From: Thiosocius teredinicola
GTDB lineage: Bacteria > Pseudomonadota > Gammaproteobacteria > Chromatiales > Chromatiaceae
Direction: 5' to 3'
Length of the DNA stretch: 64,000 bases
Assembly (NCBI RefSeq): GCF_002009425.1
Contig: NZ_CP019936.1
Coordinates: forward strand, 1,721,297 to 1,785,296
This document shows, piece by piece, positions 1-50,773 of the stretch. The notes beneath the pieces were generated by a model. It ran no database searches. It saw only the letters and a program-made list of their open reading frames with translations, and was not told where the DNA came from. The stretch's first letter is position 1. The number at the start of each line of letters is the position of its first letter. Both the position numbers and the translations under genes were made by a program.

Positions 1-896
1 TCGACCGTCTGCGCACTGGCGTCGCCGCCGAGTGAACTGGCAACGCCTTCGTTGACATGCAGCTTCATGTAACTGGTCTGTTCGCCAGGCGATACCGGGT
101 CGGAGTGGATATACGCCTCGCGGTGAAACTTGTCGAACGTGATCTTGCGGCCGTACAACGTCGGCTTGGTCACTACGCCGGCGTCGGATTCGCGCATGGC
201 GACCGAGAGTTTCTCATCGAGACTCTCGGCATCGACCGGATGACTGAACTGCAGGGTGGCGACGGTCTTGCGGATTTTCTTGTCCGCCGGATCTTGGTAG
301 AAGCGGAAGTTTTTCAGCTTGACCGTCATCGACGGCGTGCTGAATACGGCGCCGGGCTGCGTGAGTTCGACATGCGGTGCGAAAATGGAAGGCGCGAAAT
401 CGACGGTGTAGTCCTGGTTGGGAGCCCAGTCGTTTTTCGGCTGAAAACGCAGGGTGTTCGCGTCGAGCCATTCCCAGGTGCCGGGTACGGCCGGTTTCAT
501 CGTGACACCGTTTTTTACGGTCTCTCCGATCAGATCCAACTGGGCAACATCGGGCGCGCCTTCCGGATACTGTGCACGCAGTACATCGGTGGACAACACG
601 GCGTTGAATCGAATGATCAGCGGCTGCGGTTGCAACTCATCATTGACGACAGGGGTGACACGCGGACTTTCAGCGGCGGCGACGTAGCGCAGGGGTTCGG
701 GCAGGGTCTGGTAATAGAAATAGGCGGCGCCGCCGGCAATGCCGATCAGCAGCAATACGAGCACGGATCGATTGAATGTCGCGCTGTGATCGCGGCGCCA
801 AACCGTCATCGGACGCAACCAGGGCGGCGCTTGCCAACTCAGGCTTCCGAAGATCAAAGCCAGTAGTTTGCCGATTGCCCGGAAGATGAAACCCAT
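1..896 (-). CDS. hypothetical membrane-anchored protein (N-terminal TM helix, large soluble domain); C-terminus runs off window start
   Basis: Minus-strand frame open from ATG (~894-896) to position 1, antisense to listed ORF 57..866. N-terminus MGFIFRAIGKLLALIFGSLSW is a hydrophobic anchor. No family recognised by eye. Confidence 0.45.
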   Translation of the reverse strand, partial: MGFIFRAIGKLLALIFGSLSWQAPPWLRPMTVWRRDHSATFNRSVLVLLLIGIAGGAAYFYYQTLPEPLRYVAAAESPRVTPVVNDELQPQPLIIRFNAVLSTDVLRAQYPEGAPDVAQLDLIGETVKNGVTMKPAVPGTWEWLDANTLRFQPKNDWAPNQDYTVDFAPSIFAPHVELTQPGAVFSTPSMTVKLKNFRFYQDPADKKIRKTVATLQFSHPVDAESLDEKLSVAMRESDAGVVTKPTLYGRKITFDKFHREAYIHSDPVSPGEQTSYMKLHVNEGVASSLGGDASAQTV

Positions 897-1619
897 GCGA
901 CGTTCCTTGTAGTTGGTGTCCGAAAACGACGCGCAAGTATAGGCCGTTTGCTGCTGCGGTTCATGTGCAAATTGTGGCGAAACACTGGCGATTTGATGGA
1001 CCCGTTCGCTTGGCGAACACGACGCCGATTTCGTGACTGCTGATCCATAGCGTGCGATTCAAGGTCGTGCAGCATGCCTAGTTGAACAACTGCTAAACCA
1101 TGCGTCGTTACAGCGAATGGAATGCATTGATGTTCTTGTCAGGCGCGTGCCGTTGGTGGCGGGTGTCGTCTGAAATTCGGATGATTTCCGATAGCGGTTG
1201 GAGGGCATCGAGCCGTCGTTCGGTGAGAACTTGGGGATGGCTTTTGTAAAGGCACGATGTTCGGCTTTATTTTGAACTGCTTCTCAAATCTGAAAATCGG
1301 TGCGCGAGGGATAGTCGTTAAATGCCTGATTTAAGGAAGCTTTTGGTGAGTTGTGGGAATCAAGGGCTGACTTCTGCGATAAAAAATCGTTATATTAGGC
1401 AATGTTAAAGTAATGCCCTGCAGGGTCGATAGCTGAAGCCGGCCGAAACCCACCGCCATGGCATTGCGACGGTTGCTCGTCACGAGCGCTTACCGAGAGG
1501 AAGTCTGAGCTTGGTGCACGCGTCGTGCTACGCCAATGGTTGGTTGGGACACTCCTCTTAGTAGGTGCATTGGAGGCCCGAAACTTTTCCCGACTCCAAG
1601 ACAGAGACAACACAACGAA

Positions 1620-2444
1620 ATGAACATACGAACAAGACTGCTAGCCATCTTTTTTCTCATGGGTGCCGTGATCCTGGCGTACGCGCTCGCGGTGAGCTCA
1701 CTGAGCAATCGCCAGGTACAACTGGTTGACGAAACCCTGCTCAAGAACAGCCAGGCGCATGCACTGGCGAACTCGCTGATGATCCAGCTGCAGAAAACCC
1801 GTCGCTACGAGAAGGAATACTTCATCTACGTCGGTCATACCGCGAAGAAAGCCAAGTACATCGGCGAATGGACCGAGTCGATGAACAAGGTCGACGTCAT
1901 GATCAAAGCGATGATCGACGATGCGGACGGTTTGTTCGACGACAATGATGCGATCGAATTCATCGAGTGGCAGAAAGCGATCGCGTTCTATCGCAGCGAG
2001 TTCGAGAAGATCATCGAGCGTTATGCCGGGCTGAACGAGGTCGGCGAACTGGCAGCGGTTGCCTCGACCCAGCACACCGTGGATGCAAACACGCAGATCG
2101 CCGATGGCAAGAATCGACTCAAGCTGGTGTTTTCAGGGCTGGATACGCTGGAGGCGAAGAAAGATACCGAACTTGTTGCGACGCGCGCCAGCGTGCAGGA
2201 CAGCGCCGACATGATCGCCTATCTCACTTACGGCGCCGGCCTGCTTGTACTGGTGACGATGCTGATCGGCGTGATGACGCTGGATCGCTCGTTCATGGGC
2301 AAGTTCCGCAAGATCATCGATCAGACGCGCTCGATGCGCGATGGCGATATGGGCGTGCATTTCCAGAAGACCGGCATCAACGAGCTCGATGAACTAAGCG
2401 CCTCGCTGGAGATCATCAAGACCAAGTTGCTGCGTCGTAGCTGA
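1620..2444 (+). CDS. chemoreceptor-like membrane sensor: TM1, periplasmic helical ligand-binding-like domain, TM2 and a HAMP linker, with no output domain
   Basis: Internal ATG at MNIRTRLL of ORF 1536..2444 gives a TM helix (LLAIFFLMGAVILAYALAV). A ~190-aa periplasmic helical segment and a second TM (LTYGAGLLVLVTMLIGVMTL) follow. A HAMP-like segment (DRSFMGKFRKII..INELDELSASLEIIK) precedes the stop, and a hairpin terminator follows. Confidence 0.6.
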   Translation: MNIRTRLLAIFFLMGAVILAYALAVSSLSNRQVQLVDETLLKNSQAHALANSLMIQLQKTRRYEKEYFIYVGHTAKKAKYIGEWTESMNKVDVMIKAMIDDADGLFDDNDAIEFIEWQKAIAFYRSEFEKIIERYAGLNEVGELAAVASTQHTVDANTQIADGKNRLKLVFSGLDTLEAKKDTELVATRASVQDSADMIAYLTYGAGLLVLVTMLIGVMTLDRSFMGKFRKIIDQTRSMRDGDMGVHFQKTGINELDELSASLEIIKTKLLRRS

Positions 2445-2470
2445 TAACGTCATAGCAAAACCCAAAGAAA

Positions 2471-2511
2471 CCCACCGGCGAGGCCGATCAGCGCCTGCCG
2501 GTGGGTTTTTT
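2471..2511. terminator. bidirectional rho-independent terminator between the sensor gene and the convergent GNAT gene
   Basis: cccaccggc ... gccggtggg 9-bp stem followed by a tttttt run. An A-run lies on the opposite side. Confidence 0.7.
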
Positions 2512-2530
2512 GTTGCCCGGTCGCGGCAGC

Positions 2531-2989
2531 TTACTCGCCAGCGATGGCGATGCGAAGACTGTAGCCGTGTTTGTCGAATCCGAGTTTGTCGTAGAAGGCA
2601 TGCGCTCGCTCGCGCTTGAGATTGGACGACAAGGTCATCTTGTAGCAGCCCGCTGCGCCACACAGACGCATCGCCTCCTCGATCATCGCCGTACCGATGC
2701 CGAGCCCCTGTTGCTCGGGGGTAACCACGATATCTTCCAGCACGCCTGAAGGCGTCCCGCAGTGACCGAGGTTCGGCATGATCATCAGGGCAAAGGTGCC
2801 GACGATCTGCTGTTCGTGAACGGCGACATACAAACCGTAGCCGGGTAGGGCGTTGATCTGGTTGAAGACAGCCTGCGCAGCCGGGAGCGTCAGCACCTTG
2901 CCGTCGTCCAATTCGGGTTGGCTGTACAGATCCAGGATGGACGGAAGATCGGCTTCGGTGGCGGCTCTGAAGGAGATGTCGATCATCAC
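2531..2989 (-). CDS. phnO: GNAT-family N-acetyltransferase, PhnO-like (aminoalkylphosphonate N-acetyltransferase)
   Basis: 152-aa GNAT. C-terminal LSSNLKRERAHAFYDKLGF closely resembles E. coli PhnO (LSTNVKRHDAHRFYLREGY). It sits beside the phn cluster. Confidence 0.65.
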   Translation of the reverse strand: MMIDISFRAATEADLPSILDLYSQPELDDGKVLTLPAAQAVFNQINALPGYGLYVAVHEQQIVGTFALMIMPNLGHCGTPSGVLEDIVVTPEQQGLGIGTAMIEEAMRLCGAAGCYKMTLSSNLKRERAHAFYDKLGFDKHGYSLRIAIAGE

Positions 2990-3085
2990 CGTGTCAACCT
3001 GATGAATTTAGAACCCGATCGCATGATCTACGGTGCAATGCCGAAAAGCCATAGGCGAAACCACTCGAGCAACATAATGTTGTCA

Positions 3086-3101
3086 TTGTCAGCCATGACA
3101 A
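3086..3101. promoter_or_regulatory. perfect palindrome TTGTCA-gcca-TGACAA, preceded by an extra TTGTCA half-site, in the divergent promoter region between phnO-like and the HD gene
   Basis: Sequence ttgtcattgtcagccatgacaa read directly. It lies 35 nt upstream of the HD-gene ATG. Confidence 0.35.
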
Positions 3102-3134
3102 TTCAGCGACAATCAATCGCCGAGACAAACCACG

Positions 3135-3707
3135 ATGCCGATGCGCGACCCCGTTGCCGAGATTCTTCACCTGTTCGAGCGCCACGGACAGGGCCACTAT
3201 GGCGAAGCCGTGACCCAGACGCAGCACGCGGTGCAAGCCGGCGCGCTGGCGATTGCCGAAGGGCATCCCGATGATGTCGTGATCGGCGCTTTCCTGCACG
3301 ACATCGGGCATCTGATGGTCAACGAGGTGCCGGAGGCGCAACGTGATGCAGCCATCTACCGTCATCAGCAGATCGGTGCAGACCTGTTACGTGAGCTGGG
3401 GTTCTCAGAACTCGTGATCGATCTGGTGGCGACCCACGTCGACAGCAAGCGCTATCTGACTGCGGTCGATCCAGACTATCTGGCGACTTTGTCTCCCGCC
3501 AGCGTCGAGAGCCTGGCGTTCCAGGGCGGGCCGATGAGTGCAGATGAAGTGAGCGAGTTTCAAGCCCGTCCGGATATGTACCTGCACGTTCGATTGCGCC
3601 ATTGGGACGACCTGGCCAAAGATCCGCACAACGACAAAGTCGACATCGCACCTTTCGTGTCGCGCATGCGGGACCATTTTCGAGGTCAAGCCGGCGCGGC
3701 AGATTGA
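3135..3707 (+). CDS. HD-domain protein of the PhnZ family (mixed-valent di-iron oxygenase-like phosphonate C-P cleaving enzyme homolog)
   Basis: 190 aa. Motifs HYGEAVTQTQHAVQAG...FLHDIGH match the PhnZ pattern YIGEAITQLEHSLQ...LLHDLGH. It has the same length as PhnZ and sits inside the phn locus, convergent with phnP. Confidence 0.7.
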   Translation: MPMRDPVAEILHLFERHGQGHYGEAVTQTQHAVQAGALAIAEGHPDDVVIGAFLHDIGHLMVNEVPEAQRDAAIYRHQQIGADLLRELGFSELVIDLVATHVDSKRYLTAVDPDYLATLSPASVESLAFQGGPMSADEVSEFQARPDMYLHVRLRHWDDLAKDPHNDKVDIAPFVSRMRDHFRGQAGAAD

Positions 3708-3734
3708 TCGCAACCTGACGGTAGCGATTGGGCG

Positions 3735-4490
3735 TCAGATCTCTATCACCAGACCATCGTAAGCAACCGTTACCTCGTCGGGTAGCCGATGGTCGTGCTC
3801 CATCAGCCAGCTATCCAGTTCGTGCCCGATATGTGTGAGCAGATTGCGTGGTGACTTCAGCGACTCGATGGTGGCCAATGCGCGTGTCAGATCGTTGTGA
3901 TTGCGCGGGGCGGCGTCGCGCGGCGGAAAGCTGCAGTCGATGATCACTGCAGCGAGCGTTTGATCTTGTAATCGTTCTGCCGTAGCGTCAGGTAGACCGA
4001 CGGTGTCACAGAGATAAGCGACCGTTAGTCCGGCATGTTCGATCAGGTAGCCGAATGTCGGTTTCGAGTGTGTCAATGGCAAGGGTGTCAACCTGACCTC
4101 GCCGACAGTGAAAGGCTCGAATGCCGTTGCCTTGTTTCCGAAATCGAGAATACCGGGGTGTTTGAGCAGATCGCCGCAGCCCTCCGGGTCGTCCGGTCCG
4201 ATCACCGGGACGTGCTTGCCGGTTCCCCAGCGGATCCGGAACAGGCCCTGCACGTGGTCGGTATGGTAGTGGGTGAGCACCACCTTGGTCACACGATCCA
4301 TGAAGGGCTGGGTTGCCAGTTCGGGCAAGCCGGCATCGAGCAGAATCACGCTGTCGTCGGCCTCGATCAGCAGACAGGCAGAGTGGCGCCTGTAGGCCGC
4401 CGAGAGCGTCGCACGTTCACAGGCCGGACAGTCGCAGCCGAACAGCGGTACGCCGCCGGCGTTGCCACTGCCGAGAAACGTCAGCTTCAT
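3735..4490 (-). CDS. phnP: phosphoribosyl 1,2-cyclic phosphate phosphodiesterase PhnP (metallo-beta-lactamase fold)
   Basis: MKLTFLGSGNAGGVP..CDCPAC..HYHTDH motifs. Start taken at the internal ATG, because the upstream Arg/Pro-rich extension of ORF 3735..4784 is a GC artefact. ATGA overlap with phnN. Confidence 0.85.
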   Translation of the reverse strand: MKLTFLGSGNAGGVPLFGCDCPACERATLSAAYRRHSACLLIEADDSVILLDAGLPELATQPFMDRVTKVVLTHYHTDHVQGLFRIRWGTGKHVPVIGPDDPEGCGDLLKHPGILDFGNKATAFEPFTVGEVRLTPLPLTHSKPTFGYLIEHAGLTVAYLCDTVGLPDATAERLQDQTLAAVIIDCSFPPRDAAPRNHNDLTRALATIESLKSPRNLLTHIGHELDSWLMEHDHRLPDEVTVAYDGLVIEI

Positions 4491-5095
4491 TGCTCGTCTT
4501 CCGACAGCAGCCTTATCACTTGCTGGCCCGCCCGCTGCAGGCTGCCGTTGTTGTCGATGCATGTCAGGCGCGTGTGGTCGACCAATGCATCGCGCTCGCT
4601 GGCCAACAGCAGGCGTCGTTCGACCTCCACCCGGGTTTCCCGGCCGCGTGCGGTGAGTCGTTGTCGCAGGATCTCCGGGTCGGTCCTGATCAAAATTGGA
4701 TGAAGGTTCGGGAAAAGTGCTGCCGCCTTGTCGAGGTAGGTGCGAGAGCCATTGACAACGGCATGCATGCCGCGCTGCATCCATTCCTTGATCTCGATGC
4801 CGACGCCATACGAGAGACCATGGCTGCGCCAGTGCATGGCAAAGCAGCCTGCTTGCAGCCGACGGGCGAATTCGTCGGGAGTGAGCGCGACATGGTTCTC
4901 ACCACCGGCATCCGCAGGCCGGGTGATATAGCGATGGGCGAACAGCACGGATGCAGCCGTCGGCAGGTTGTCGCGCGCATAGCGCATGATACTGTCCTTG
5001 CCTGCACCAGACGCACCGATGATATAGAACAGTTTCGCGCCCACCAGAATATCGGTGCGTCTCAGGGTCAGACGACGCGTGTGCCCTGGCGCCAT
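4487..5095 (-). CDS. phnN: ribose 1,5-bisphosphate phosphokinase PhnN
   Basis: P-loop GASGAGKDS aligns with E. coli PhnN GPSGSGKDS. An alternative GTG start at ~5044 gives an MGAKLFYIIG N-terminus closer to the homolog. Confidence 0.85.
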   Translation of the reverse strand: MAPGHTRRLTLRRTDILVGAKLFYIIGASGAGKDSIMRYARDNLPTAASVLFAHRYITRPADAGGENHVALTPDEFARRLQAGCFAMHWRSHGLSYGVGIEIKEWMQRGMHAVVNGSRTYLDKAAALFPNLHPILIRTDPEILRQRLTARGRETRVEVERRLLLASERDALVDHTRLTCIDNNGSLQRAGQQVIRLLSEDEQ

Positions 5096-6213
5096 ACCTG
5101 TCTCACTACCGGCACATCATCCACGCAACGCACACGTATCAGGTCTGCCCGCTTGTCCACGGCGATGCTGCCGCGGTCGTGCAGGCCGGCGGCGTCCGCG
5201 GGGTTCAGATTGACCATGGCCACGGCTTCCGGCAGTTGGATGTGATCGATGTGCTGTGCAAGGACGAACGCGGCGTGCAGCAGGCTGTTCGGTACGTAGT
5301 CTGACGACAGGGTATCCAGCAGACCCTGTTGCGCGAGTTCACGTGCCGATACATTGCCCGAGTGCGAAAAGCCGCGCACGACATTCGGTGCGCCCATCAA
5401 CACGTGCAGGCCGTGGTGGCGTGACGCGTTGGCTGCGCCCACGGTTGTCGGGAACTCGGCGATACTCATGCCGTCGGCAACCGCTTCTTCGACATGCTCG
5501 ATCGTCGCATCGTCGTGACTGGCCAGAGACAGGCCGCGTTCGCGGCACATCTCTGCAATGGCCGCGCGATGATGGCGGCCGAGACGCAGGCTGGTCTCGG
5601 TCTGACGCTGGATCTGCGCCTCCATCTCCTCATCGCTCAGCTTGTACTTGCCCTGGTAGTACTCGCGGTACTTGTTGATGTCGGCGAACTGCCGCTGGCC
5701 GGGCGAGTGGTCCATGACCGATACCAGCTTGACGAGCGGGTCGTCGACGATCGACGTGAAGTTTTCCAATGTCGGCTCATAGGTGACCTCGCAGCGTATA
5801 TGCAGCAGGTGCTCGGCGCGCGTGAGATCGGACGCATGTGCCTGGCGAACGGCCTCGGTCATGTGCCTGAAGCGTTGGATGCGAGATGAACCCTGGATTA
5901 CGTCGCCTGTCGCCACGGCATTGAACACGGTGGTGATACCGGCGCTGGCAACCGCCGCATCGTGGGCAAAGATCGCCGGCATCGCCGGCCAGCTCACGGT
6001 CGGACGCGGGCTGAAGTGCTTTTCGAGATTGTCGGTGTGCAGTTCGATCAAACCGGCGATCAGGTAGTCGCCGTCGAGGTCAACAACGCTGGGCAGCTGA
6101 CTGTGACCCTCATCGACCGCCTTAATTTTGCCGTCGTGCAGGCAGACCGTACCTTTGATGACGCAGTCCGGCATCACGATCTGTGCGTTGCTGAGAACTG
6201 TCTCGCTGTTCAT
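5068..6213 (-). CDS. phnM: alpha-D-ribose 1-methylphosphonate 5-triphosphate diphosphatase PhnM (amidohydrolase)
   Basis: Amidohydrolase with DLHTDNLEKH and SHDD motifs. Position between phnL and phnN. Confidence 0.9.
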   Translation of the reverse strand: MNSETVLSNAQIVMPDCVIKGTVCLHDGKIKAVDEGHSQLPSVVDLDGDYLIAGLIELHTDNLEKHFSPRPTVSWPAMPAIFAHDAAVASAGITTVFNAVATGDVIQGSSRIQRFRHMTEAVRQAHASDLTRAEHLLHIRCEVTYEPTLENFTSIVDDPLVKLVSVMDHSPGQRQFADINKYREYYQGKYKLSDEEMEAQIQRQTETSLRLGRHHRAAIAEMCRERGLSLASHDDATIEHVEEAVADGMSIAEFPTTVGAANASRHHGLHVLMGAPNVVRGFSHSGNVSARELAQQGLLDTLSSDYVPNSLLHAAFVLAQHIDHIQLPEAVAMVNLNPADAAGLHDRGSIAVDKRADLIRVRCVDDVPVVRQVWRQGTRVV

Positions 6214-6932
6214 GCGGCCATACTCCGTAGTTCGCCGGTACCCATATCCAGTCGGTGCGTACCGACGTTTTCGCGCACTTCGGCGTCGTGGAAAATACCG
6301 ATCAGGGCTGCGCCGCGTTGCATCGCAGCGTGCATCAGGTCGATCACGACCTGGCGGTTGGCGGCGTCGAGCGACGCAGTCGGTTCATCGAGCAGCAGGA
6401 TCGGATAATCGGCGACGAAACAATGCGCGATGTTGACGCGCTGTTGTTCGCCGCCGGAAAAGGTGCTTGGTGCAAGCGACCACAGACGCCGCGGGATGTT
6501 GAGTCGGTCGAGATAGGTCTCTGCCTGTTCCCGGGCTTCATTGGCCGGTACGCCTTGGCGGCGCAGTGGCTCGGCGACGATATCCAGGGTGCTGACTCGG
6601 GGGATGACCCGCAGGAACTGACTGACATAACCCAGGGTTCGCCGCCGGATGTCGAGTATCTGGTGCGACGCAGCCGTCACCATGTCGACCCATGCCTCAT
6701 CGTGACGCACCAACACCTGACCCGATTGCGGGAGATAGTTGGCGTATAGCGAACGCAGCAGGGTGCTCTTGCCGGTGCCGGATTGACCGTGCAGCACGAT
6801 GCATTGACCGCGTTCGATGCTGAACGACACGTCGTCAAGCACATCGAGACGGATGCCGCCCTGGTTGTGCAGGGTGAAGTGTTTGTGCAGGTCTCGTGCT
6901 TCGAGCATCATCGAGTCCATCGGCGACCTCAT
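6210..6932 (-). CDS. phnL: C-P lyase system ATP-binding protein PhnL
   Basis: ABC ATPase motifs GQSGTGKST and LLLDEPTASLD. Follows phnK in operon order. Confidence 0.9.
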   Translation of the reverse strand: MRSPMDSMMLEARDLHKHFTLHNQGGIRLDVLDDVSFSIERGQCIVLHGQSGTGKSTLLRSLYANYLPQSGQVLVRHDEAWVDMVTAASHQILDIRRRTLGYVSQFLRVIPRVSTLDIVAEPLRRQGVPANEAREQAETYLDRLNIPRRLWSLAPSTFSGGEQQRVNIAHCFVADYPILLLDEPTASLDAANRQVVIDLMHAAMQRGAALIGIFHDAEVRENVGTHRLDMGTGELRSMAA

Positions 6933-7714
6933 GGTTGCAGTACCGATGAGACCAGCAACTGCGTATAAGCATGTTGCGGATCGTCCAGTACCTGGTCGGT
7001 CAGTCCCGTTTCCACGACTTCGCCACGGCGCATGACCATCAGGCGATGTGCCAGCAGGCGGGTTACGGCCAGATCGTGGGTGACGATAACGGCGGACAGT
7101 TGCAGATCGGTGACCAGGTTGCGCAACAGGTCGAGCAGGCGCGCTTGCACCGAAACGTCCAGGCCCCCGGTCGGCTCGTCCATGAACACCAGCCGCGGGG
7201 TGGTGACCAGGTTGCGCGCGATCTGTACCCGCTGTTGCATGCCGCCGGAGAAGTTCTTCGGCAGATCGTCGATGCGGGCGGCGTCGATCTCGACACGTCC
7301 GAGCCAGCGCTGTGCTTCGTTGCGAATCCCGCCGTAGTGCCGGGCGCCGACAGCCATCAAACGTTCGCCGACATTGGCGCCGGCGCTGACCCCCATGCGT
7401 AGCCCATCGCGCGGGTTTTGGTGCACGATGCCCCAGTCGGTGCGCATCAGCATGCGTCGCTGCGCCTCGGACATAGCAAACAGGCTCTGCATACCATCGT
7501 GGCGCGTGGCGTATTCGACACTGCCGCTACTTGGTGAGAGCTGGGCCGACAGGCAGTTGAGCAGCGTGCTTTTGCCGGAGCCCGATTCGCCGACGATTCC
7601 CAGGACCTCGCCCGGATGCAGTTCGAAGCTGACATCGCGACATCCCAGTTGTTCGCCGTAGTATTTGCTCAGCCGTGTGACGCGGAGTAACGGCTCGCGG
7701 GTGTTGCTGTTCAT
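6929..7714 (-). CDS. phnK: C-P lyase system ATP-binding protein PhnK
   Basis: ABC ATPase [19 protein letters not shown]-like signature and FMDEPTGGLD. Operon position after phnJ. Confidence 0.9.
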   Translation of the reverse strand: MNSNTREPLLRVTRLSKYYGEQLGCRDVSFELHPGEVLGIVGESGSGKSTLLNCLSAQLSPSSGSVEYATRHDGMQSLFAMSEAQRRMLMRTDWGIVHQNPRDGLRMGVSAGANVGERLMAVGARHYGGIRNEAQRWLGRVEIDAARIDDLPKNFSGGMQQRVQIARNLVTTPRLVFMDEPTGGLDVSVQARLLDLLRNLVTDLQLSAVIVTHDLAVTRLLAHRLMVMRRGEVVETGLTDQVLDDPQHAYTQLLVSSVLQP

Positions 7715-8622
7715 CGTTCGGATTCCGGGTGTGGGTATGCCGCCGGCGTGATGTCGTCACCGCTGAATCCCTGATCGCGGCGTTGTGCGCAGTACTGGGT
7801 ATCGGAACAGACGAACATGCGACCACCACGGTCGTCGGTGATGACCTCGTCGAGGTAGCTATGGTCGGAGCCGCACAGGGCGCAATGCTGCTGCCATGAC
7901 TGCACCTCGAAGGGATGGTCTTCGAAATCGAGGCTTCTGACCTCGGTAAACGGCGGAATGGCGTAGATGCGTTTCTCACGACCGGCGCCGAACAGTTGCA
8001 GTGCCGGGTTCATGTGCATCTTGGGGTTGTCGAACTTCGGAATCGGCGACGGCGACATGATGTAGCGGCCGTTGACCTGCACCGGGTAGTCGTAGCCGGT
8101 GGCGATGCGACCGAACTGGGTGATGTCTTCGTAGAGCTTCACGTGCATCACGCCGTACTCCTGCAAGGCGTGCATCTTGCGCGTTTCACTTTCACGCGGC
8201 TCGATCCAGCGTAGCGGCTCTGGGATCGGTACCTGGTAGACGAGGATCTGGCCATCCCGCAGCGGCACCTCGGGTATCCGGTGGCGCGTCTGGATCACGC
8301 TGGCCGCTGAGGTCTGCTCGGTGGTTGCAATGCCGGCGGTACGCGCGAAGAAGCGACGAATGCTGACCGCATTGGTCGTATCGTCTGCGCCCTGGTCGAT
8401 GACCTTCAGGGTGTCGTCGGCGCCGATCACGCTCGCGGTTACCTGAATGCCGCCGGTTCCCCATCCGTAGGGCAGAGGCATCTCGCGGCTGCCGAACGGC
8501 ACCTGATAACCCGGCACGGCGACGGCCTTGAGGATCGCGCGGCGGATCATGCGCTTCGTCTGCTCGTCGAGGTAGGCGAAGTTGTAGCCGTCCATCGGTG
8601 CGCTTGCGGCGGTGCCGTTCAT
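7711..8622 (-). CDS. phnJ: alpha-D-ribose 1-methylphosphonate 5-phosphate C-P lyase PhnJ
   Basis: Conserved PhnJ core GYQVPFGSREMP. C-terminal cysteine cluster CALCGS...CSDTQYC for the 4Fe-4S/radical SAM-like site. Confidence 0.92.
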   Translation of the reverse strand: MNGTAASAPMDGYNFAYLDEQTKRMIRRAILKAVAVPGYQVPFGSREMPLPYGWGTGGIQVTASVIGADDTLKVIDQGADDTTNAVSIRRFFARTAGIATTEQTSAASVIQTRHRIPEVPLRDGQILVYQVPIPEPLRWIEPRESETRKMHALQEYGVMHVKLYEDITQFGRIATGYDYPVQVNGRYIMSPSPIPKFDNPKMHMNPALQLFGAGREKRIYAIPPFTEVRSLDFEDHPFEVQSWQQHCALCGSDHSYLDEVITDDRGGRMFVCSDTQYCAQRRDQGFSGDDITPAAYPHPESER

Positions 8623-9758
8623 GCGGCACCTCCGGCCTTACGCTGGGTGGCGTCGTCATGTTCATCGGCTGCACGCAGGCGACGTACCAGATCGAGTTCG
8701 CCCTGAAAGTCGACGTAGTGGGGTAGCTTCAGGTGCTGCACGAACCCTGATGCCTCGACGTTGTCGCTGTGGTAGAGCACGAACTCTTCGTCTTGCGCGG
8801 GCGCCGATGTGTCTTCGCCCAGCTCGCGTGAACGCAGCGCACGGTCGACCAGGGCCATGGCCATCGCCTTGCGTTCACCGTAGCCGAATGTGAGTCCATA
8901 GCCACGCGTGAAGCGCGCCTTTTGTTCGGCGTTGCCTTTGAACTGGTTGATCATTTCGCATTCGGTGATGACGATGTCGCCGACGTCGATCGCGAAGCCG
9001 AGCTCCTCGGGCACGATTTCGACGCTGACTTCGCCCATGCGGATCTCACCGGCAAAGGGATGGTTGCGCCCGTAACCACGCTGCGTCGAGTAGCCCATCG
9101 CCAGCAGAAAGCCTTCGTCGGCACGGGCGAGATTCTGCAGTCGGATGTCGCGCTCGGCGGGGAACGTCAGCGGTTCCCGCGTCAGGTCGCCGACCGGTTC
9201 ATCTGCGTTGGCGTTTGCTTCGGTCTCGATCAGGTCTTCGTCGTTCAGCACGTCGGTGACCCGCGGCATCGCCTGCTGCGTCGCGTCGACCTTTGACGCC
9301 GGATGAGAAGACTCCGACTTGGTGGCGTCGCTATCAGCCGCGGTGTCGCCTTCGGCGGCCAACGCGAAATCGAGCAGTCGGTGGGTATAGTCGAATGTCG
9401 GCCCGAGGATCTGCCCGCCGGGGATGTCTTTGTAGGTCGCCGAGATGCGACGTTCGACATGCATCGCGTCGGTGTCGATCGGTTCGCTGACCGCGAGGCG
9501 GGGCAGGGTGGTGCGATAGGCGCGCAGCAGAAAGATTGCCTCGATGACGTCGCCGCGCGCCTGTTTGAGCGCGAGCGCCGCCAGGTCGCGGTCGTATACC
9601 GAGCCTTCAATCATCACGCGGTCGACCGCCAGGCTGAGCTGTTCGCGGATCTGATCGACGCCGATCTCGTCGATCGCGCGGTCGCCGCGGCGATCGCTGG
9701 CCAGCAGCCGGTGCGCATTGTCGATGGCCTTTTCACCACCCTTTACGGCTACGTACAT
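8619..9758 (-). CDS. phnI: C-P lyase core complex subunit PhnI
   Basis: MYVAVKGGEKAI N-terminus typical of PhnI. Operon position between phnH and phnJ. Confidence 0.9.
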   Translation of the reverse strand: MYVAVKGGEKAIDNAHRLLASDRRGDRAIDEIGVDQIREQLSLAVDRVMIEGSVYDRDLAALALKQARGDVIEAIFLLRAYRTTLPRLAVSEPIDTDAMHVERRISATYKDIPGGQILGPTFDYTHRLLDFALAAEGDTAADSDATKSESSHPASKVDATQQAMPRVTDVLNDEDLIETEANANADEPVGDLTREPLTFPAERDIRLQNLARADEGFLLAMGYSTQRGYGRNHPFAGEIRMGEVSVEIVPEELGFAIDVGDIVITECEMINQFKGNAEQKARFTRGYGLTFGYGERKAMAMALVDRALRSRELGEDTSAPAQDEEFVLYHSDNVEASGFVQHLKLPHYVDFQGELDLVRRLRAADEHDDATQRKAGGAA

Positions 9759-9759
9759 G

Positions 9760-10356
9760 TCAGGCCTCCAATCGCGTGCTGCGCGGTAATGCAGCCAGGC
9801 GATTACCGCTGGTCAAAATGAAATCGACACCGCGTGGAAAAAGCGTTGCGTTGTCGGCCACCCGTTGCCAGAGACCGGCCGGCGCGCCGGCAACTTCAAG
9901 CTCGATGACTCCGTCGATACCGGGGCCGATCAATCGCTGACCGCCATCGTTGGCGATGCCGGTAACATCAATGATGACGGTCGCTGCCTGTTCCGGATGT
10001 TCGTCCGTGCCGATATGAATCTGCGCAGTGCGATCGAATGCCTGTGCCTCGCCGAACAACAGGTATTGCGCACGCTCCGCTGCATCCGCAATCGGGCAGC
10101 CGCAATGAAAAGCCAGAAATTCGCGCGATTCTGAGGCTGCACTATCCAGCCAGACGGGTGTTTCAAAGTCGAGCAATGCGAGCGCGATCTGTGTCGCGGC
10201 GGCAGACAGGCCGTTGTTCGGTGCTATGCGCGAGTCCGGCAGCGTGACAACGAGGCCGGGGCGCGACATCGCCTGCAACACATGGCGAAAAACTTGCTGT
10301 GACTGGTGCACCGGGTTGTCGAACCCGGTAGCGAGCACGTCGCTTGCTTGAGGCAT
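9760..10356 (-). CDS. phnH: C-P lyase core complex subunit PhnH
   Basis: ~198 aa. Size and position between phnG and phnI. N-terminal GFDNPVHQSQQVFR is PhnH-like. Confidence 0.85.
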   Translation of the reverse strand: MPQASDVLATGFDNPVHQSQQVFRHVLQAMSRPGLVVTLPDSRIAPNNGLSAAATQIALALLDFETPVWLDSAASESREFLAFHCGCPIADAAERAQYLLFGEAQAFDRTAQIHIGTDEHPEQAATVIIDVTGIANDGGQRLIGPGIDGVIELEVAGAPAGLWQRVADNATLFPRGVDFILTSGNRLAALPRSTRLEA

Positions 10357-10357
10357 C

Positions 10358-10804
10358 TCAGTCGTCCCCCCGTACCAGCGTGAAGAAGTCCACCTTGGTT
10401 TTTGCGACCTCGCCGGAACGTGACCGCCGAGCCTGTTCGATGGCCTGCTGCAACGGCGCGACGGTCGCCGCCGGCAGGCTGCCGTTGAGCAACAAGGCGT
10501 CGGCTACGGCAGCCAGTTCGGCGCGCCGCTTGTCACGCCCGCAGATATAGGCGACGCCGGTTGTCTTGTCGGCGAGTTGTATGACACAGCGGGTCATCGT
10601 CATCTCACCCAGGTTGAACGCCCGGCCGTTGCCGCCCATGCGACCGCGCACTTGGCACAGCCCCGACTCCGGGGGACGTGGCAGGCTGTAACTCGGCTTT
10701 TGCGGTGCGTCGTCAATCAACGACTGCAACTGCGCCAGCGAACTGCGCGCGAGGGTCGCCATCCAGGCGCGTCGCTGCGTTTGTTGTGTTGAGGTTTCAC
10801 TCAT
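10358..10804 (-). CDS. phnG: C-P lyase core complex subunit PhnG
   Basis: First gene of the operon. Start set at the internal ATG (MSETSTQQ). The TTG start of ORF 10358..10855 would lie inside the operator palindrome. Confidence 0.8.
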   Translation of the reverse strand: MSETSTQQTQRRAWMATLARSSLAQLQSLIDDAPQKPSYSLPRPPESGLCQVRGRMGGNGRAFNLGEMTMTRCVIQLADKTTGVAYICGRDKRRAELAAVADALLLNGSLPAATVAPLQQAIEQARRSRSGEVAKTKVDFFTLVRGDD

Positions 10805-10828
10805 GTGCTGTTCAGACAATCCAAATAT

Positions 10829-10855
10829 TTGTATAGACAAATGTTGTCTATACAA
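10829..10855. promoter_or_regulatory. tandem inverted HutC/GntR-type operator (TTGTATAGACAA atg TTGTCTATACAA), a candidate PhnF binding site in the phnF/phnG divergent promoter
   Basis: Two 12-mers that are reverse complements of each other. Each contains the GT-N-TA-N-AC core (GTCTATAC) typical of HutC-subfamily operators. A third copy lies upstream of phnC. Confidence 0.7.
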
Positions 10856-10918
10856 TTACGCTGCCACGGTGACTTCCGCAAGGACGTTTCGGTGAATTTT
10901 TTTTGACAGACGAGGCGT

Positions 10919-11650
10919 ATGTTCATGGTTGTGTCAGATAACGCTGCTTCACTGCCTGTATGGCGCCAGATTCAAAACCGTCTGAAGGCCGCCATCCTGG
11001 ACGGCACCTATGCGGCCGGTGAACGCATTCCGACCGAACATGCGCTGGCGAGCGAACTGGGTGTCAACCGCCATACCGTGCGGCGTGCCATTTCCGGCTT
11101 GACCGAGCAGGGCCTGTTGCGGGTCGAGCAGGGGCGCGGCATGTTCGTGCAGGAGAACGTGCTGTTCTATCCGATCGGAAAACGCACGCGCTTCACCGAA
11201 ACGGTCGAGCGGCAGAACCGGTCGCGCGGCCGTCGCATCATCGCTGCCGACACCGCCAAGGCGGATGCCAAGGTGGCGCAGGCGCTCGGCATGCTGCGCG
11301 GGCGGGCGGTCATCCACCTGCGCTCGATCGCCGAGGTCGATGGGCGCCCGGTCAGCGTGTCGGACGATTTTTTCAATCGCGCGCGTTTTCCCGATATGGC
11401 GGGACATGCGCTCGACACCCTGTCGATCACGGAATCGTTGCGCCTGTGCGGCGTCGATGACTATTTCCGCAAGGTCACGCATGTAACGACGCGTATGCCG
11501 AAACGCGATGAAGCAGAGCAACTGCGCCAGCCGCTGAACCGCCCGGTGCTGGTCACCGAAAACATTGACGTGGACGTTGATGACAAACCGGTTGCCTTTG
11601 GCTCGACAATCTGGAGCGGCGACCGCGTGCAACTGGTCTTTGAAAGCTGA
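10919..11650 (+). CDS. phnF: GntR/HutC-family phosphonate operon transcriptional regulator PhnF (HTH plus UTRA domain)
   Basis: N-terminal winged HTH (PVWRQIQNRLKAAILDG...IPTEHALASELGVNRHTVRRAI) and a UTRA-like C-terminus. Divergent from phnG. Confidence 0.88.
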   Translation: MFMVVSDNAASLPVWRQIQNRLKAAILDGTYAAGERIPTEHALASELGVNRHTVRRAISGLTEQGLLRVEQGRGMFVQENVLFYPIGKRTRFTETVERQNRSRGRRIIAADTAKADAKVAQALGMLRGRAVIHLRSIAEVDGRPVSVSDDFFNRARFPDMAGHALDTLSITESLRLCGVDDYFRKVTHVTTRMPKRDEAEQLRQPLNRPVLVTENIDVDVDDKPVAFGSTIWSGDRVQLVFES

Positions 11651-11705
11651 CGTGCACGTCCGGTTAAACGGGCGCATCGCGGGGTCGGTCGAGTTCCCAA
11701 GAGAT

Positions 11706-12869
11706 TCACGCAGCAACACGTTGACGCGATGTGTAGACCGGTTGGCCGGCGACGAAGGTTGTGATGACCTCGGGCAGGCCGGGCTCACGGTCATCGACGA
11801 TCAGCACGTCGGCACGCATGCCTTCTCGTAGCGACCCGCGATCCGTCATCCCGGTTGCGGCCGCCGGCCAGCTGGATACCAGGGGCCACAGCTCCGCTAG
11901 CGTCTTGTCGGTCCGTTCAACCAGTTTGAACAGCGCGACCAGCAGCGATGGGTAGTAATAGTCCGACGTCAGGATGTCACAAACGCCATCGCGTACCGCG
12001 CCGGTTGCACACAGGCGGTCGCAATGGCTACCGTCCCGTACGACGTTGGGTGCGCCGAGGATCACGAAGTCGCCCTGGTCTTTGGCGGATCTGGCAACCT
12101 CGGTGCTCACGGGAAACTCGCACAGGCGCACGCCCAGTTCATGGAACCATGAGCGCATCTCGATGGTTTCATCGTCATGCGACGCACACGGGATGCCCGC
12201 ATCGCGTGCCGCTTGAGCCAGTCGGGCGATCGCGGGCGGCACATCGGCGGCGCGCGAAATCACGTCGTTGAAAACCCCGATGAACGCGTCGTGAGTCAAA
12301 CCTGTCCGATTGGCGTATTCATTGATCTTGCGGCGGTTGTCGGCCGCGATGTGCTGACCGATGTGGGCGGCATGGTCGTTGAAAGCCAGCAGATCGACAC
12401 GTCCGTCGTGCAGCAGGTCGGAAACGTCTCGCTCGCCCGCCAGGTTAAAGGTCTCCCAGCGCAGGTGCACGCGCGTGTCGCAGCCGAGGTTGGGCCTTTG
12501 TTGTTCTATGGCATCGATCAGAGAGAGTGCGGTTTCGCGTCCTCGCAGCCCGGGTTCCCATGAGTAGGTAATGCCGTGGAACGCGGTGGTGATGCCGTTG
12601 GCGAGCAACTGCCGATCGGTTTCACGCAGCGCCAGATCGACCGGGAAATGAACCCCGGGGCGCGGCAGAATCTGGCGCTCGAAGGCATCGCCGTGCAGGT
12701 CGATGATGCCTGGCAGAATCAACGCGCCCTGCGCGTCGATGGTTTGCCCGGCCGATGCCGGACCATTATCAGCGGAGCCGGCAATCACGCCGTCGCGGAG
12801 TTGCAACGGGACCGACGCGATGTGGCCTTCGCCCGTCAGCACCCGACCGTTGATGATCGTGAAATCCAT
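11706..12869 (-). CDS. second PhnM-like amidohydrolase (alpha-D-ribose 1-methylphosphonate 5-triphosphate diphosphatase paralog) at the end of the transporter operon
   Basis: Amidohydrolase motifs DLHGDAFE and SHDD. Similar length and motif layout to phnM at 5068..6213. Confidence 0.8.
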   Translation of the reverse strand: MDFTIINGRVLTGEGHIASVPLQLRDGVIAGSADNGPASAGQTIDAQGALILPGIIDLHGDAFERQILPRPGVHFPVDLALRETDRQLLANGITTAFHGITYSWEPGLRGRETALSLIDAIEQQRPNLGCDTRVHLRWETFNLAGERDVSDLLHDGRVDLLAFNDHAAHIGQHIAADNRRKINEYANRTGLTHDAFIGVFNDVISRAADVPPAIARLAQAARDAGIPCASHDDETIEMRSWFHELGVRLCEFPVSTEVARSAKDQGDFVILGAPNVVRDGSHCDRLCATGAVRDGVCDILTSDYYYPSLLVALFKLVERTDKTLAELWPLVSSWPAAATGMTDRGSLREGMRADVLIVDDREPGLPEVITTFVAGQPVYTSRQRVAA

Positions 12870-12872
12870 CGG

Positions 12873-13679
12873 TCAGATAACCAGTTTGCGCAGGCGCTGC
12901 GAAAGGATGTCGAGCAGGCTGACGCTGACCACGATGATGACCATGATCGCCGCAGTTTCTGCATAGTAGAAACCACGAATCATCTCGTACAGTGGCTGGC
13001 CTATGCCGCCGGCGCCGACGATGCCAAGCACCGTCGCCGAGCGCACGTTGGATTCGAAGCGGTACAGCGAATACGAAATCCACAGCGGCAATACCTGTGG
13101 GATGACGCCAAAGATGACTTCCTGCAGTCGGCTCGCGCCGGTGGCGCGGATACCTTCAACCGGACGGGGGTCGATCGCCTCGACCGCTTCGGAAAACAGC
13201 TTGGCGAGTATGCCGGTCGTATGCACGAACAGTGCGAGCACGCCGGCAAAGGGGCCGAGACCGACCGCTACGACGAACATCATCGCAAATACCATCTCGT
13301 TGATGGCGCGCGCGGCGTCCATCAGTCGGCGGACGGGTTGGTAGATCCACCACGGCACGATGTTCTCTGCCGACAACACGCCGAAGGGGATAGACAATAC
13401 GACAGCGAGTACCGTGCCCCATACGGCGATCTGAATGGTGACCATCATTTCTTCGACGTAGTCGGTCCAGTTCGTGAAGTCGGGCGGGAAAAAGCCCTGC
13501 AGGAACGAACTCATGTTGCCCGCTTCGCTGAACAGCACGCCCGGCGCCATTTCGGCGCCCTCCCAGGACCACACCAACACGGCGAGTGCAGCGGCCCAGC
13601 CGACGTAGTAGGCGAGCGATTTCTTCAGATCCCGCTTTGGGAGTTCCAGTTTGCCGGTGGCGGTAGCGGTGTGATTCAT
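12873..13679 (-). CDS. phnE: phosphonate ABC transporter permease PhnE
   Basis: Multi-TM permease with the EAA-like region typical of PhnE. Follows phnD. Confidence 0.88.
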
Positions 13680-13766
13680 AGCGATGTTATGGACGTTGGC
13701 GGGTGGCCTCCCCGGCCGGAAGCCGGGGAGGTGCCGCGCGCAGGGGTGCGCACGGCCAGGGGCGTC

Positions 13767-14798
13767 TTAGTTGGCGGCGACGCCCATCGAGCTGCTGATC
13801 AACACTTCGAGCTCGGCGAGCTTGGCGTCGATCTCGGCGATCTTTGCCTTTTTCTGCTCAGCGCTCATGTTGTCGTTGCCTTCGATCTTGAGCTTGTCCT
13901 TGAACAGGGCGAGCTGACGCACCGGGTACAACTGGGCGTTGTTGGAGTCGGTGTAACCGCCGCCACCGGTACCCAGGTCGGCAAGACGCTGCTGCTGTGC
14001 CGCGGCCTTGTCACCGAGACGGCCGTAACCGAGGAAGAACGATTTGATCTTGGCCTTGAGCGGCTTGCTCAGGTCCTTGCGATAAGTGATCGGATCTGCC
14101 GGGATCAGCGGTGAGGTCCAGACGATCTTGATCTTCTCGGCGGCATCCGGGGCAGTGACCTTGGAGCGTGCTACCTGCTCCGAGTTGTTCGACGCGGCGT
14201 CCACTTGCTTGTTGGCGACCGCCAGCAGGTTGGTCTCATGGTTGGCGTTGCGGACGGTTTTGAAACATTTTTTCGGATCGACGTTGTTCTGTGCGAACAC
14301 GTAGTAGGTCGGTACCAGGAATCCCGACGTGGAGTTCGGGTCGCCGATGCCGAAGTTCTTGCTGCCGTCGCACTTGAGCAGATCGTCGAGCGAGTTGATG
14401 TCCTTGTTGGCGACGTTGGTGATGATGTGCGAGTAGTAGCCCTGGGTTCCGTCGGCCTTGATCTCTTGAACGAATACCTCGGCACCAGCACGATCGACGG
14501 CCTCGATAGCCGATTTATTGCCGTACCAGGCGACGTGAACCTTGCCGAAACGCATACCTTCGATGATGCCGGCATAGTCCGAAGCGAAGAACGGTTTTAC
14601 TTTGATGCCGATCGCGTCTTCCATGTCCTTGAGAAAGGGCTCCCAGGACTGTTTCAGGTGGATGGTCGACTCGGTCGAGATGATTCCGAAGTTGATGACT
14701 TCGGGATCGCCTTCGAGCGCCTTGAAGTTTTGTTCGGCGACGGCTGCGCCGGTCAGCAGCAGCGCGGACAACGCGCCTTTCAGCAGGGTCTTCATCAT
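13767..14798 (-). CDS. phnD: phosphonate ABC transporter periplasmic substrate-binding protein PhnD (with a ~40-aa Lys/Glu/Ala-rich C-terminal extension)
   Basis: Signal peptide MMKTLLKGALSALLLTGAAVA and the PhnD-like core FGIISTES..YGNKSAIEA. The C-terminal coiled-coil-like tail AEQKKAKIAEIDAKLAELE is unusual. Confidence 0.88.
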   Translation of the reverse strand: MMKTLLKGALSALLLTGAAVAEQNFKALEGDPEVINFGIISTESTIHLKQSWEPFLKDMEDAIGIKVKPFFASDYAGIIEGMRFGKVHVAWYGNKSAIEAVDRAGAEVFVQEIKADGTQGYYSHIITNVANKDINSLDDLLKCDGSKNFGIGDPNSTSGFLVPTYYVFAQNNVDPKKCFKTVRNANHETNLLAVANKQVDAASNNSEQVARSKVTAPDAAEKIKIVWTSPLIPADPITYRKDLSKPLKAKIKSFFLGYGRLGDKAAAQQQRLADLGTGGGGYTDSNNAQLYPVRQLALFKDKLKIEGNDNMSAEQKKAKIAEIDAKLAELEVLISSSMGVAAN

Positions 14799-14840
14799 GA
14801 TTCTATGCTCCAGGTGAATGTGGGCCGGGTTTCAATTGCA

Positions 14841-15707
14841 CTAACTGGCAGAGGCGTAGACGACGTCGGTGTCGAACGCGTCGTCGTAGTCGTCATCGTC
14901 GGCGGTGTTCTTGCGGGTGCCGAGGATGAGTTCTTCGCTGTCTTCTCCGTACAGCTCGGTGAGAAATTCGGGGGTCAAGGCCTCGCTGGTGCCGTCATAG
15001 ACGACTTCGCCGTCGCGCATCGCCAGTGTTCGCGGGCAGTAGTGGATTGCATACGACACTTGATGCAACGACACGATGACGCTGATGTCCGCTTGGTTGA
15101 TCGCGGCCAGCGCCTTCATCACGCGTTTTGAGGACGCGGGATCGAGTGAGGCGATCGGTTCGTCAGCCAGAATGAGTTGGGCACGTTGTACCAGGGTGCG
15201 CGCGATCGCGACGCGCTGCTGTTGGCCGCCCGACAGTGTCGATGCGCGCTGATCGGCAAAGCGTGCCATGCCGACCTGGTCGAGCGCTTCCATGGCGGCA
15301 AGTTTCTCGGTTTTGTTGAACCACCCGAGCGAGCCCCGGTTTACCGGAATCCGACCCAGCAGCCCGAGACAGACATTGGTAAGCACAGAGAGGCGCTCTA
15401 TCAGATTGAATTGCTGGAATATGAAGCTGGTGTCGGCGCGCTGATGTCGTTTGCCGCGACGGATACGACCATTTCGCTGCACGGTTCGCCCGTTGACCTC
15501 GACAATGCCGGCGCCGTTCTTCGCGTCTCCAGCGGCAAGGCCGGCGACGTGACGTAGCAGGGTGGATTTGCCCGAGCCCGACGCCCCGATCAAAGCGACC
15601 ATTTCGCCACGTGCGATATCCAGGTTGATATTCTTCAGTGCGGTCTGCGCGCTTGATCCCCGGCCGAACGTTTTGTTCAGCTGCTGAATGCTGATTGCTT
15701 TGGACAT
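14841..15707 (-). CDS. phnC: phosphonate ABC transporter ATP-binding protein PhnC (acidic C-terminal tail)
   Basis: ABC ATPase [25 protein letters not shown] and ILADEP. First gene of the phnCDE operon. Confidence 0.9.
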
Positions 15708-15797
15708 GGCTCGGCCTCCGTCTTATGTAACTATTCTCCCGGCGCAGCCATGACTCCCGCGTTTACGAACGATGACAAATCGGTTACCGGCCATGAT

Positions 15798-15809
15798 TTG
15801 TCTATACAA
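15798..15809. promoter_or_regulatory. single HutC-type box TTGTCTATACAA (third copy of the PhnF-like operator) between phnC and the divergent EEP gene
   Basis: Exact 12-mer shared with the phnF/phnG operator. It lies ~90 nt upstream of the phnC start and ~110 nt upstream of the EEP gene. Confidence 0.6.
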
Positions 15810-15916
15810 CGTTGCTGATTGGTTGGTGCGTCGCGGATCGATCTCTGTCGATCGAACGCCTGTCACATCGTGCGGGTAGTTTTTGTTGGTTTACCGGTAT
15901 CGAAAATCGCCGAATC

Positions 15917-40930: not shown

Positions 40931-40951
40931 AGTGCTTACCTCTTACCTTGC

Positions 40952-50770: not shown

Positions 50771-50773
50771 GGC

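Follow-up and report, generated by a model that had tools for sequence, protein, structure and literature searches.

A gene for a 190-residue HD-domain protein (WP_078119223.1) lies next to the carbon-phosphorus (C-P) lyase operon in a 64,000-nucleotide stretch of the genome of Thiosocius teredinicola, the sulphur-oxidising, chemoautotrophic gill symbiont of the giant shipworm (contig NZ_CP019936.1; the whole stretch is called the window below). As far as sequence and fold show, the protein is a candidate di-iron oxygenase of the PhnZ/TmpB type and not a generic HD phosphohydrolase, and we think it reasonably probable, though well short of certain, that it works as a stand-alone PhnZ-type oxygenase on an imported 1-hydroxyalkylphosphonate, as an optional accessory of the C-P lyase. 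This proposal is supported directly by family membership in sequence and fold, by a recurrent association with phnP, by the local absence of a hydroxylase gene and by purifying selection. An earlier note, made from the letters of the window, had placed a PhnZ-like gene of 190 codons between phnP and a gene for a GNAT acetyltransferase; open reading frames (ORFs), strands and gene order are as it described them.

Of all the models tried, TIGR03276, 'phosphonate degradation HD-domain oxygenase', scores the protein highest and by a wide margin (194.8 bits, with 141.0 for the TmpB model NF049941 and 131.1 for the GmPhnZ1 model NF052439), while its sequence matches in the PDB are limited to TmpB (6npa, E 9e-33) and PhnZ (4mlm, E 1e-28). 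Oxygenases of this type are defined by a six-ligand iron motif, H...HD...H...H...D (PMC8177086), and the alignment places H31, H55, D56, H77, H101 and D158 at the positions of PhnZ H34, H58, D59, H80, H104 and D161, all six being invariant across the 25 members of the close clade, by which we mean proteins at least 52% identical to this one, mostly from marine metagenomes. Equally invariant is H59, in an HDIGH motif, which corresponds to PhnZ H62 and is the fifth conserved histidine that marks the TIGR03276 clade (PMC11203657). A mobile substrate loop of the form YxxE is known from PhnZ (Y24/E27) and TmpB (Y30/E33) (PMC8177086); its counterpart here, Y22-G23-E24, is one residue shorter, with the tyrosine and the glutamate kept in all 25 proteins. 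An AlphaFold2 model of the protein (pLDDT 93.3, pTM 0.90), compared with the PDB by Foldseek, retrieved PhnZ or TmpB structures as its first ten matches, at TM-scores of 0.80-0.90, the matches that followed being HD hydrolases at TM-scores below 0.5. Finally, K105, S123, S126, Q130 and R155 align with PhnZ K108, S126, T129, Q133 and R158, which we take to be the residues that contact the phosphonate; S126 is at least 90% conserved in the clade and the other four are invariant. The ratio of non-synonymous to synonymous substitution rates (dN/dS) of the gene, measured against two orthologues, is 0.12-0.15, and the gene is therefore under purifying selection. The PhnZ-like identity given to the protein in the earlier note is borne out by ligands, fifth histidine, phosphonate-contact counterparts and fold alike.

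These observations have to be set against the idea that the protein is a metal-dependent phosphohydrolase, a phosphodiesterase or phosphatase that would act on an intermediate of the C-P lyase pathway or on a nucleotide. RefSeq names it merely 'HD domain-containing protein', in agreement with a TIGR03276 score that stays under the cutoff of the model, and the ligand motif is known from some bimetallic HD hydrolases too (PMC11203657); yet its close fold matches are PhnZ and TmpB only, the fifth histidine and the phosphonate-contact positions of PhnZ are conserved, and the downstream phosphoester steps are already covered by PhnP and PhnN, all of which makes this alternative highly improbable.

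No hydroxylase gene was found beside the HD gene. Pfam scans of about 60 ORFs of the window revealed no TauD or PhyH domain, and six-frame tblastn searches, with one PhyH-type PhnY* (from the planctomycete locus L005) and two TauD/GBBH-type TmpA-like proteins (from Labrenzia and Phyllobacterium) as probes, gave no match at E<=0.1 in the window or in 14 orthologous loci, where flanks of at most 10 kb around the HD gene were covered. The earlier note had reported that the window holds no PhnY partner, which is confirmed and extends to those 14 loci; it had also called the gene an 'orphan', a state that a wider comparison shows to be nothing unusual. Among 80 metagenome loci that make up a wider family (L012-L091, 40-52% identity), 52 span at least 5 kb, and 51 of these are without a hydroxylase, the single one present being fused to the HD domain. 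TIGR03276 proteins ('PhnHD') have been described in Achromobacter, and some pseudomonads possess them without PhnY*, a situation in which their function was called a conundrum in 2024 (PMC11203657); PhnZ genes linked to phnWX clusters have been noted too (bioRxiv 10.1101/2020.12.13.422544). A PhnZ-like gene without a hydroxylase is thus the norm. Since no PhnY is found nearby, a substrate that is already hydroxylated, one of the possibilities raised in the earlier note, would be the most economical reading.

The canonical two-step pathway offers another way to account for the same facts: a PhnY*/TmpA-type 2-oxoglutarate-dependent hydroxylase encoded far away would supply the 1-hydroxy substrate from 2-aminoethylphosphonate (2-AEP), methylphosphonate or a related compound. 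A hydroxylase does work alongside each of the characterised enzymes, PhnZ, TmpB and GmPhnZ (PMC8177086, PMC10574752), some relatives of the present gene occur in paired loci (L005, Labrenzia, Phyllobacterium), and the hydroxylase search took in the 64-kb window of the genome. However, wherever such a system has been characterised, and likewise in the pairs met here, the hydroxylase and oxygenase genes adjoin each other or are fused; the search found no hydroxylase in the window or in the HD flanks of the 14 orthologous loci; and 2-AEP and methylphosphonate are already dealt with by the C-P lyase that the cell possesses. We consider a distant hydroxylase quite improbable.

The association with the C-P lyase is not peculiar to Thiosocius. 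The HD gene and phnP converge in the window, in L011, in a Neptuniibacter metagenome-assembled genome (MAG; L002), in L008/9, L010, L095 and L096/97 and in the P0018 locus, while in a TARA locus (L006) it stands 6 kb from phnP. In the latter its stop codon overlaps the start of a hexapeptide acetyltransferase gene of family TIGR03308 (293.6 bits), a translationally coupled arrangement, and NCBIfam itself names that family as a phosphonate-metabolism protein. As for more distant family members, on plasmid 4 of Variovorax sp. SRS16, phnIJKLM-phnCDE is followed by a gene annotated as 'phosphonate degradation HD-domain oxygenase', and on pNsp_b of Nostoc sp. ATCC 53789 the oxygenase gene lies within the operon itself, in the order phnG-H-GNAT-I-fosA-like-phnM-like-HD-J-K-L-M. 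The union of a PhnZ-like oxygenase with C-P lyase genes is therefore recurrent, already annotated in RefSeq, and made by a family that is known: the 'hybrid locus' announced in the earlier note is a real arrangement, but, with the Nostoc and Variovorax entries at hand, not a new one. In the literature that we searched, which did not include the primary papers on the PhnZ and TmpB structures, no C-P lyase operon was mentioned as containing a PhnZ-like gene. Other plasmids illustrate the remaining contexts of such oxygenases, a phosphonatase-linked type in Comamonas and the TmpA/TmpB type in Labrenzia and Phyllobacterium. In the wider family the gene is usually accompanied by a PhnX-like HAD hydrolase, a DUF5690 protein, a flavin adenine dinucleotide (FAD) oxidoreductase and a helix-turn-helix (HTH)-cupin regulator, together with large ORFs of SusC and SusD size (about 1,100 and 530 residues, judged by size only).

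Compared with the enzymes for which structures or activities are available, the protein resembles PhnZ, the (R)-1-hydroxy-2-aminoethylphosphonate oxygenase of HF130_AEPn_1 (PDB 4MLM/4MLN/4N71), of which it shares about 31-34% of the residues, the fold, the six iron ligands, the fifth histidine, the tyrosine and glutamate of the loop and the K/S/S/Q/R set that matches the phosphonate contacts; it differs by its Y-G-E loop, where PhnZ has Y-x-x-E, and by the attachment of its gene to the phnP of a C-P lyase operon, PhnZ being encoded in a phnY-phnZ pair. TmpB of Leisingera caerulea (PDB 6NPA) is its best sequence match in the PDB. Its short Y-x-E loop recurs in the planctomycete GmPhnZ1-like protein of L005, for which the model of GmPhnZ1, the hydroxymethylphosphonate dioxygenase of Gimesia maris, gives 260 bits and whose gene adjoins a methylphosphonate-hydroxylase-like gene. 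Unlike the present gene, for which none was found, those of TmpB and GmPhnZ1 have an adjacent hydroxylase gene, TmpA or PhnY*. As a stand-alone PhnZ-like gene set at a major phosphonate pathway it resembles the Nostoc and Variovorax oxygenases and the 'PhnHD' that occurs without PhnY* in Achromobacter (PMC11203657). The Nostoc and Variovorax proteins, however, are 33-41% identical to it, have the standard YxxE loop and are encoded in the direction of their operon, whereas the HD gene runs towards phnP and its clade stays below the TIGR03276 cutoff.

The acetyltransferase gene that lies on the other side of the HD gene, divergent from it, raises the question of a joint function. Its ORF has 152 codons from a GTG start, and the RefSeq protein 151 residues. 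On the PhnO model NF007530 the protein reaches 37.2 bits for a cutoff of 142, no better than its match to RimI or other GNAT models, and its best PDB match is an uncharacterised Agrobacterium GNAT (2dxq), so that by sequence it is a generic GNAT and not a PhnO equivalog. Its context tells another story. The three plasmid relatives that match it best all lie within or next to C-P lyase operons, in Acidovorax sp. T1 (47.6% identity, between phnJ and phnK), in Nostoc (39%, between phnH and phnI) and in Thermus thermophilus (38.7%, after phnM), and orthologues occupy the same divergent position in L011, in L096 (58% identical) and in the P0018 locus. Its dN/dS is about 0.16-0.20. The GNAT clearly belongs, by context, to the C-P lyase locus, where it probably has a PhnO-like role in N-acetylating aminoalkylphosphonates. 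The epithet 'PhnO-like' used in the earlier note is thus acceptable for the context and not for the sequence. Like PhnO of E. coli and Salmonella and like TIGR03308, this GNAT is an acetyltransferase that figures among the optional accessories of the C-P lyase, and unlike PhnO it is encoded outside the operon, beyond the HD gene, from a promoter of its own.

One may imagine that both neighbours act in turn on a single aminohydroxyphosphonate, 1-hydroxy-2-aminoethylphosphonate (HAEP) being N-acetylated and then cleaved, or the glycine-type product of its cleavage being acetylated. The divergent pair is indeed kept at 58-60% identity in four loci (window, L011, L096, P0018), with a promoter core common to the GNAT-HD loci, the HD gene of L006 overlaps that of the other acetyltransferase, TIGR03308, and one Nostoc operon holds both genes. 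Against this, each gene is found without the other: the Acidovorax and Thermus C-P lyase operons carry a GNAT of this subfamily with no HD gene in the 10-12 kb examined, and the HD gene is present without the GNAT beside phnP in L002, L008-10 and L095 and beside phnE in Variovorax; the two genes are not adjacent in Nostoc; and the clade shows no variation at E24, the loop glutamate to which the free amine binds in PhnZ. An obligate coupling was for this reason rejected as the best explanation, and we may understand the two genes as independent accessories rather than as the two steps of one pathway. A shunt of this sort appears distinctly unlikely, and the proposal of the earlier note that the oxygenase might work on a substrate N-acetylated by the GNAT is weakened accordingly.

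The pair seems to have its own regulation. In the gap between the two genes a core of short elements precedes the HD gene, consisting in the window of GCAACAT (3069-3075), four nucleotides, TTGTCAT (3080-3086), ten nucleotides and a -10-like hexamer, GACAAT (3097-3102). Corresponding cores are found in L011 (CGAACAT-N4-CTGTCAT ... GATAAT) and in L096 (AGATCAT-N4-CTGTCAC ... CACAGT), exactly as far from the start codon of the HD gene as in the window, with a weak half-site at -66 to -60, a strong YTGTCAY at -55 to -49 and the -10-like hexamer at -38 to -33; TGTCA is expected 0.07 times per 120 bp. A half-site, four nucleotides, YTGTCAY, ten nucleotides and a -10 element in this order constitute the layout of PhoB-dependent promoters, and the GNAT-HD pair is, by this analogy, probably under Pho control. 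The same gap contains a perfect palindrome, TTGTCA-GCCA-TGACAA, in which the earlier note had seen a hint of separate regulation. It is the sole match of its kind in the window at one mismatch or less, for 0.10 expected, and 10 of 100 shuffled sequences also gave a match: the palindrome is real, and by itself only mildly non-random. Two divergent promoters are predicted here, and each takes one arm of the palindrome as its -35-like hexamer (TTGTCA-16-GACAAT on the plus strand, TTGTCA-16-CATTAT on the minus strand). In L011 the palindrome is decayed (TCGTCG-GATA-TGATAA), and in L096 it is missing; as the main element, a dedicated operator, it was accordingly rejected.

A different box, TTGTATAGACAA, is found as an inverted pair of 12-mers with a 3-bp spacer in the gap between phnG and phnF, and as a third copy upstream of phnC. 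At two mismatches or less it has six matches where 0.96 are expected, a number reached in none of 100 shuffles, and the corresponding phnG-phnF gap of the Neptuniibacter MAG contains it as well (L002, 17609-17620). It resembles what we take to be the mycobacterial PhnF operator, and it is probably the operator of PhnF, a regulator of the HutC/GntR type. At the same tolerance there is no match to it in the GNAT-HD gap; the palindrome, the spacing of which differs, could not be retained as a variant of this box. The sequence thus suggests that the GNAT-HD pair, with its own promoter region, is probably outside PhnF control and inside the Pho regulon, so that the separate regulation guessed at in the earlier note has some substance in a promoter region free of the putative PhnF operator, and not in the palindrome, which is not conserved.

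We can now spell out how the HD protein may work. A 1-hydroxyalkylphosphonate, already hydroxylated when it enters the cell and presumably imported by the neighbouring PhnCDE, would be bound through its phosphonate and hydroxyl oxygens at a mixed-valent Fe(II)/Fe(III) di-iron site, where dioxygen would be activated and the C-P bond cleaved to yield a carboxylic acid and phosphate, no PhnY partner being required. Catalytic activity and substrate are what we infer here, and the candidate substrates would be (R)-HAEP and hydroxymethylphosphonate (HMPn). The former is a natural compound for which dedicated enzymes exist (bioRxiv 10.1101/2020.12.13.422544), and GmPhnZ cleaves both (PMC10574752). 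The HD gene would be one of several optional accessories of C-P lyase loci that widen the range of usable phosphonates, and the neighbouring GNAT a second, independent one.

Several points weigh against this reading. The score of the protein is under the TIGR03276 cutoff (194.8 for 214.6 bits), five clade members lie in the range of 184-195 bits, and the protein falls far short of the 300 bits set for the TmpB and GmPhnZ1 equivalogs. The loop of the clade, Y-G/D-E, is one residue shorter than the YxxE of PhnZ and TmpB. The clade stands apart in a neighbour-joining tree, about equidistant (0.61-0.68) from PhnZ, TmpB and the GmPhnZ1-like protein, so that similarity gives no substrate; an attempt to derive one from the phylogeny was abandoned, as these distances point to none of the three. 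The oxygenase activity is, for the clade as a whole, a prediction drawn from sequences and a model. Three clade members are on short contigs that have no C-P lyase genes, and the window in which no hydroxylase was found covers 64 kb of a genome of 4.79 Mb. As for regulation, the upstream half-site of the Pho-box-like repeat is weak (3-4 of 7 positions), and the E. coli Pho-box consensus, at three mismatches or less, has three matches, below chance, none of them at the phn promoters, so that the Pho-box reading is taken from the layout of three orthologous promoters only.

A more specific version of the proposal may be put forward, with much less confidence, as unlikely and still worth stating. 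The short-loop (Y-G/D-E), phnP-linked gammaproteobacterial clade would have its own alpha-hydroxyphosphonate substrate and form with the GNAT a Pho-controlled 'alpha-heteroatom' bypass, for compounds poorly handled by the radical C-P lyase, such as hydroxymethyl-, 1-hydroxyethyl- or host-derived hydroxy-aminoethylphosphonate, with the GNAT of the operon serving alpha-amino phosphonates. If this were true, C-P lyase loci would be two-mechanism systems.

Table 1. Features of the C-P lyase region, in coordinates of the window.
Feature	Position	Strand	Remarks
GNAT N-acetyltransferase, WP_078119222.1	2531-2989	-	Pfam Acetyltransf_1, 4.9e-17
GNAT-HD intergenic gap			145 bp, between the divergent GNAT and HD genes
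Pho-box-like promoter core of the HD gene	3069-3102	+	layout conserved in window, L011 and L096
Perfect palindrome TTGTCA-GCCA-TGACAA	3086-3101		in GNAT-HD gap
HD protein, WP_078119223.1, 190 aa, PhnZ/TmpB-type oxygenase candidate	3135-3707	+	TIGR03276, 194.8 bits
phnP, cyclic phosphodiesterase of the C-P lyase pathway	3735-4490	-	TIGR03307, 357 bits
Core C-P lyase operon phnN, M, L, K, J, I, H, G	4487-10804	-	
Inverted pair of TTGTATAGACAA boxes, putative PhnF operator	10829-10855		12-mers, 3-bp spacer; phnG-phnF gap
phnF	10919-11650	+	
Second PhnM-like amidohydrolase	11706-12869	-	NF011987 subfamily, 438 bits
phnE	12873-13679	-	
phnD	13767-14798	-	
phnC	14841-15707	-	
Third TTGTATAGACAA copy	15798-15809		upstream of phnC

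The C-P lyase locus is complete in the window, as phnCDE / phnF / phnGHIJKLMNP (Table 1), and it follows from the order and strands of the genes that the HD gene is convergent with the operon-terminal phnP and divergent from the GNAT gene. The TIGR03307 match to phnP begins at residue 99 of a long ORF, and the gene is called as 251 residues in L001. The convergent HD and phnP ORFs end 27 bp apart, and no terminator was predicted in the interval (3708-3734); their counterparts in L095 and L011 overlap. Transcription of the two genes towards each other could lead to interference. A search of positions 1-17000 of the window against Rfam found no RNA family. The operon has a phnM of its own, and the second PhnM-like gene is separate from it, between phnF and phnE; amidohydrolase-sized genes are found at the matching position in L009 and L010. 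Directly past phnC is a gene for a transglutaminase-core protein (16572-17576, plus strand), a 43% identical relative of which adjoins phnP in the TARA locus L006 (12839-13702), flanked there by genes for an ArsP-type permease and an ArsR-type regulator; it is a recurrent neighbour in C-P lyase loci, being present in these two. Farther along, positions 37748-56116 form a large [NiFe]-hydrogenase region with two pairs of small and large subunits, hypD/hypE-like genes, HybE, HupH, a maturation protease and a cytochrome b, as well as a PAS histidine kinase and a sigma-54 activator; the window further encodes RtcB (32591-33853) and a fused ATP sulphurylase/adenosine 5'-phosphosulphate kinase (57013-58737). 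The hydrogenase and the sulphurylase/kinase genes fit a chemolithoautotroph.

A number of arrangements met among the relatives deserve a record of their own. A single ORF of 449 residues in L060 (185-1534) starts with a PhnZ-like HD domain and ends with a PhyH-type hydroxylase similar to PhnY*; it looks like the bacterial equivalent of PhoF, a fusion enzyme of fungi. In L003, from a Nitriliruptoraceae MAG, an ORF of 404 residues (2037-3251) fuses a phosphonatase-like HAD domain with a PhnZ-like HD domain and adjoins an FAD-dependent oxidoreductase gene. The soil metagenome loci (for example L040, 5155-8546) hold the PhnZ-like gene in a recurrent set with HTH-cupin, HAD, DUF5690 and FAD-oxidoreductase genes, to which SusC/SusD-sized ORFs and a phosphodiesterase-like gene are often added; this set may be a hydroxylase-free locus for phosphonate utilisation. 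The operon of Nostoc pNsp_b includes, between phnI and the phnM-like gene, one for a FosA-like glutathione transferase (L102, 4351-4773). The TIGR03308 hexapeptide acetyltransferase is paired with an endonuclease/exonuclease/phosphatase-family protein both in the TARA locus L006 (7946-10061) and in Acidovorax p2-T1 (L104, 9227-10760), each time beside genes of the C-P lyase.

The consequence of this situation is of importance for the way environmental sequences are read. Metagenome surveys of ocean and soil take PhnZ-like genes as markers of the oxidation of 2-AEP alone, and estimates of their abundance vary widely between studies (PMC10574752); most of the family members sampled here are without a hydroxylase partner and attached instead to C-P lyase or phosphonatase loci. 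Their sequences and surroundings suggest that the substrates of these hydroxylase-free proteins are probably 1-hydroxyphosphonates of environmental or host origin. The general picture of C-P bond cleavage would stay unchanged by the identity of the compound used by the clade linked to the C-P lyase. Knowing this compound would, however, improve annotation, refine the inventories of genes of the phosphorus cycle, and show how a chemoautotrophic symbiont of shipworms scavenges its phosphorus.

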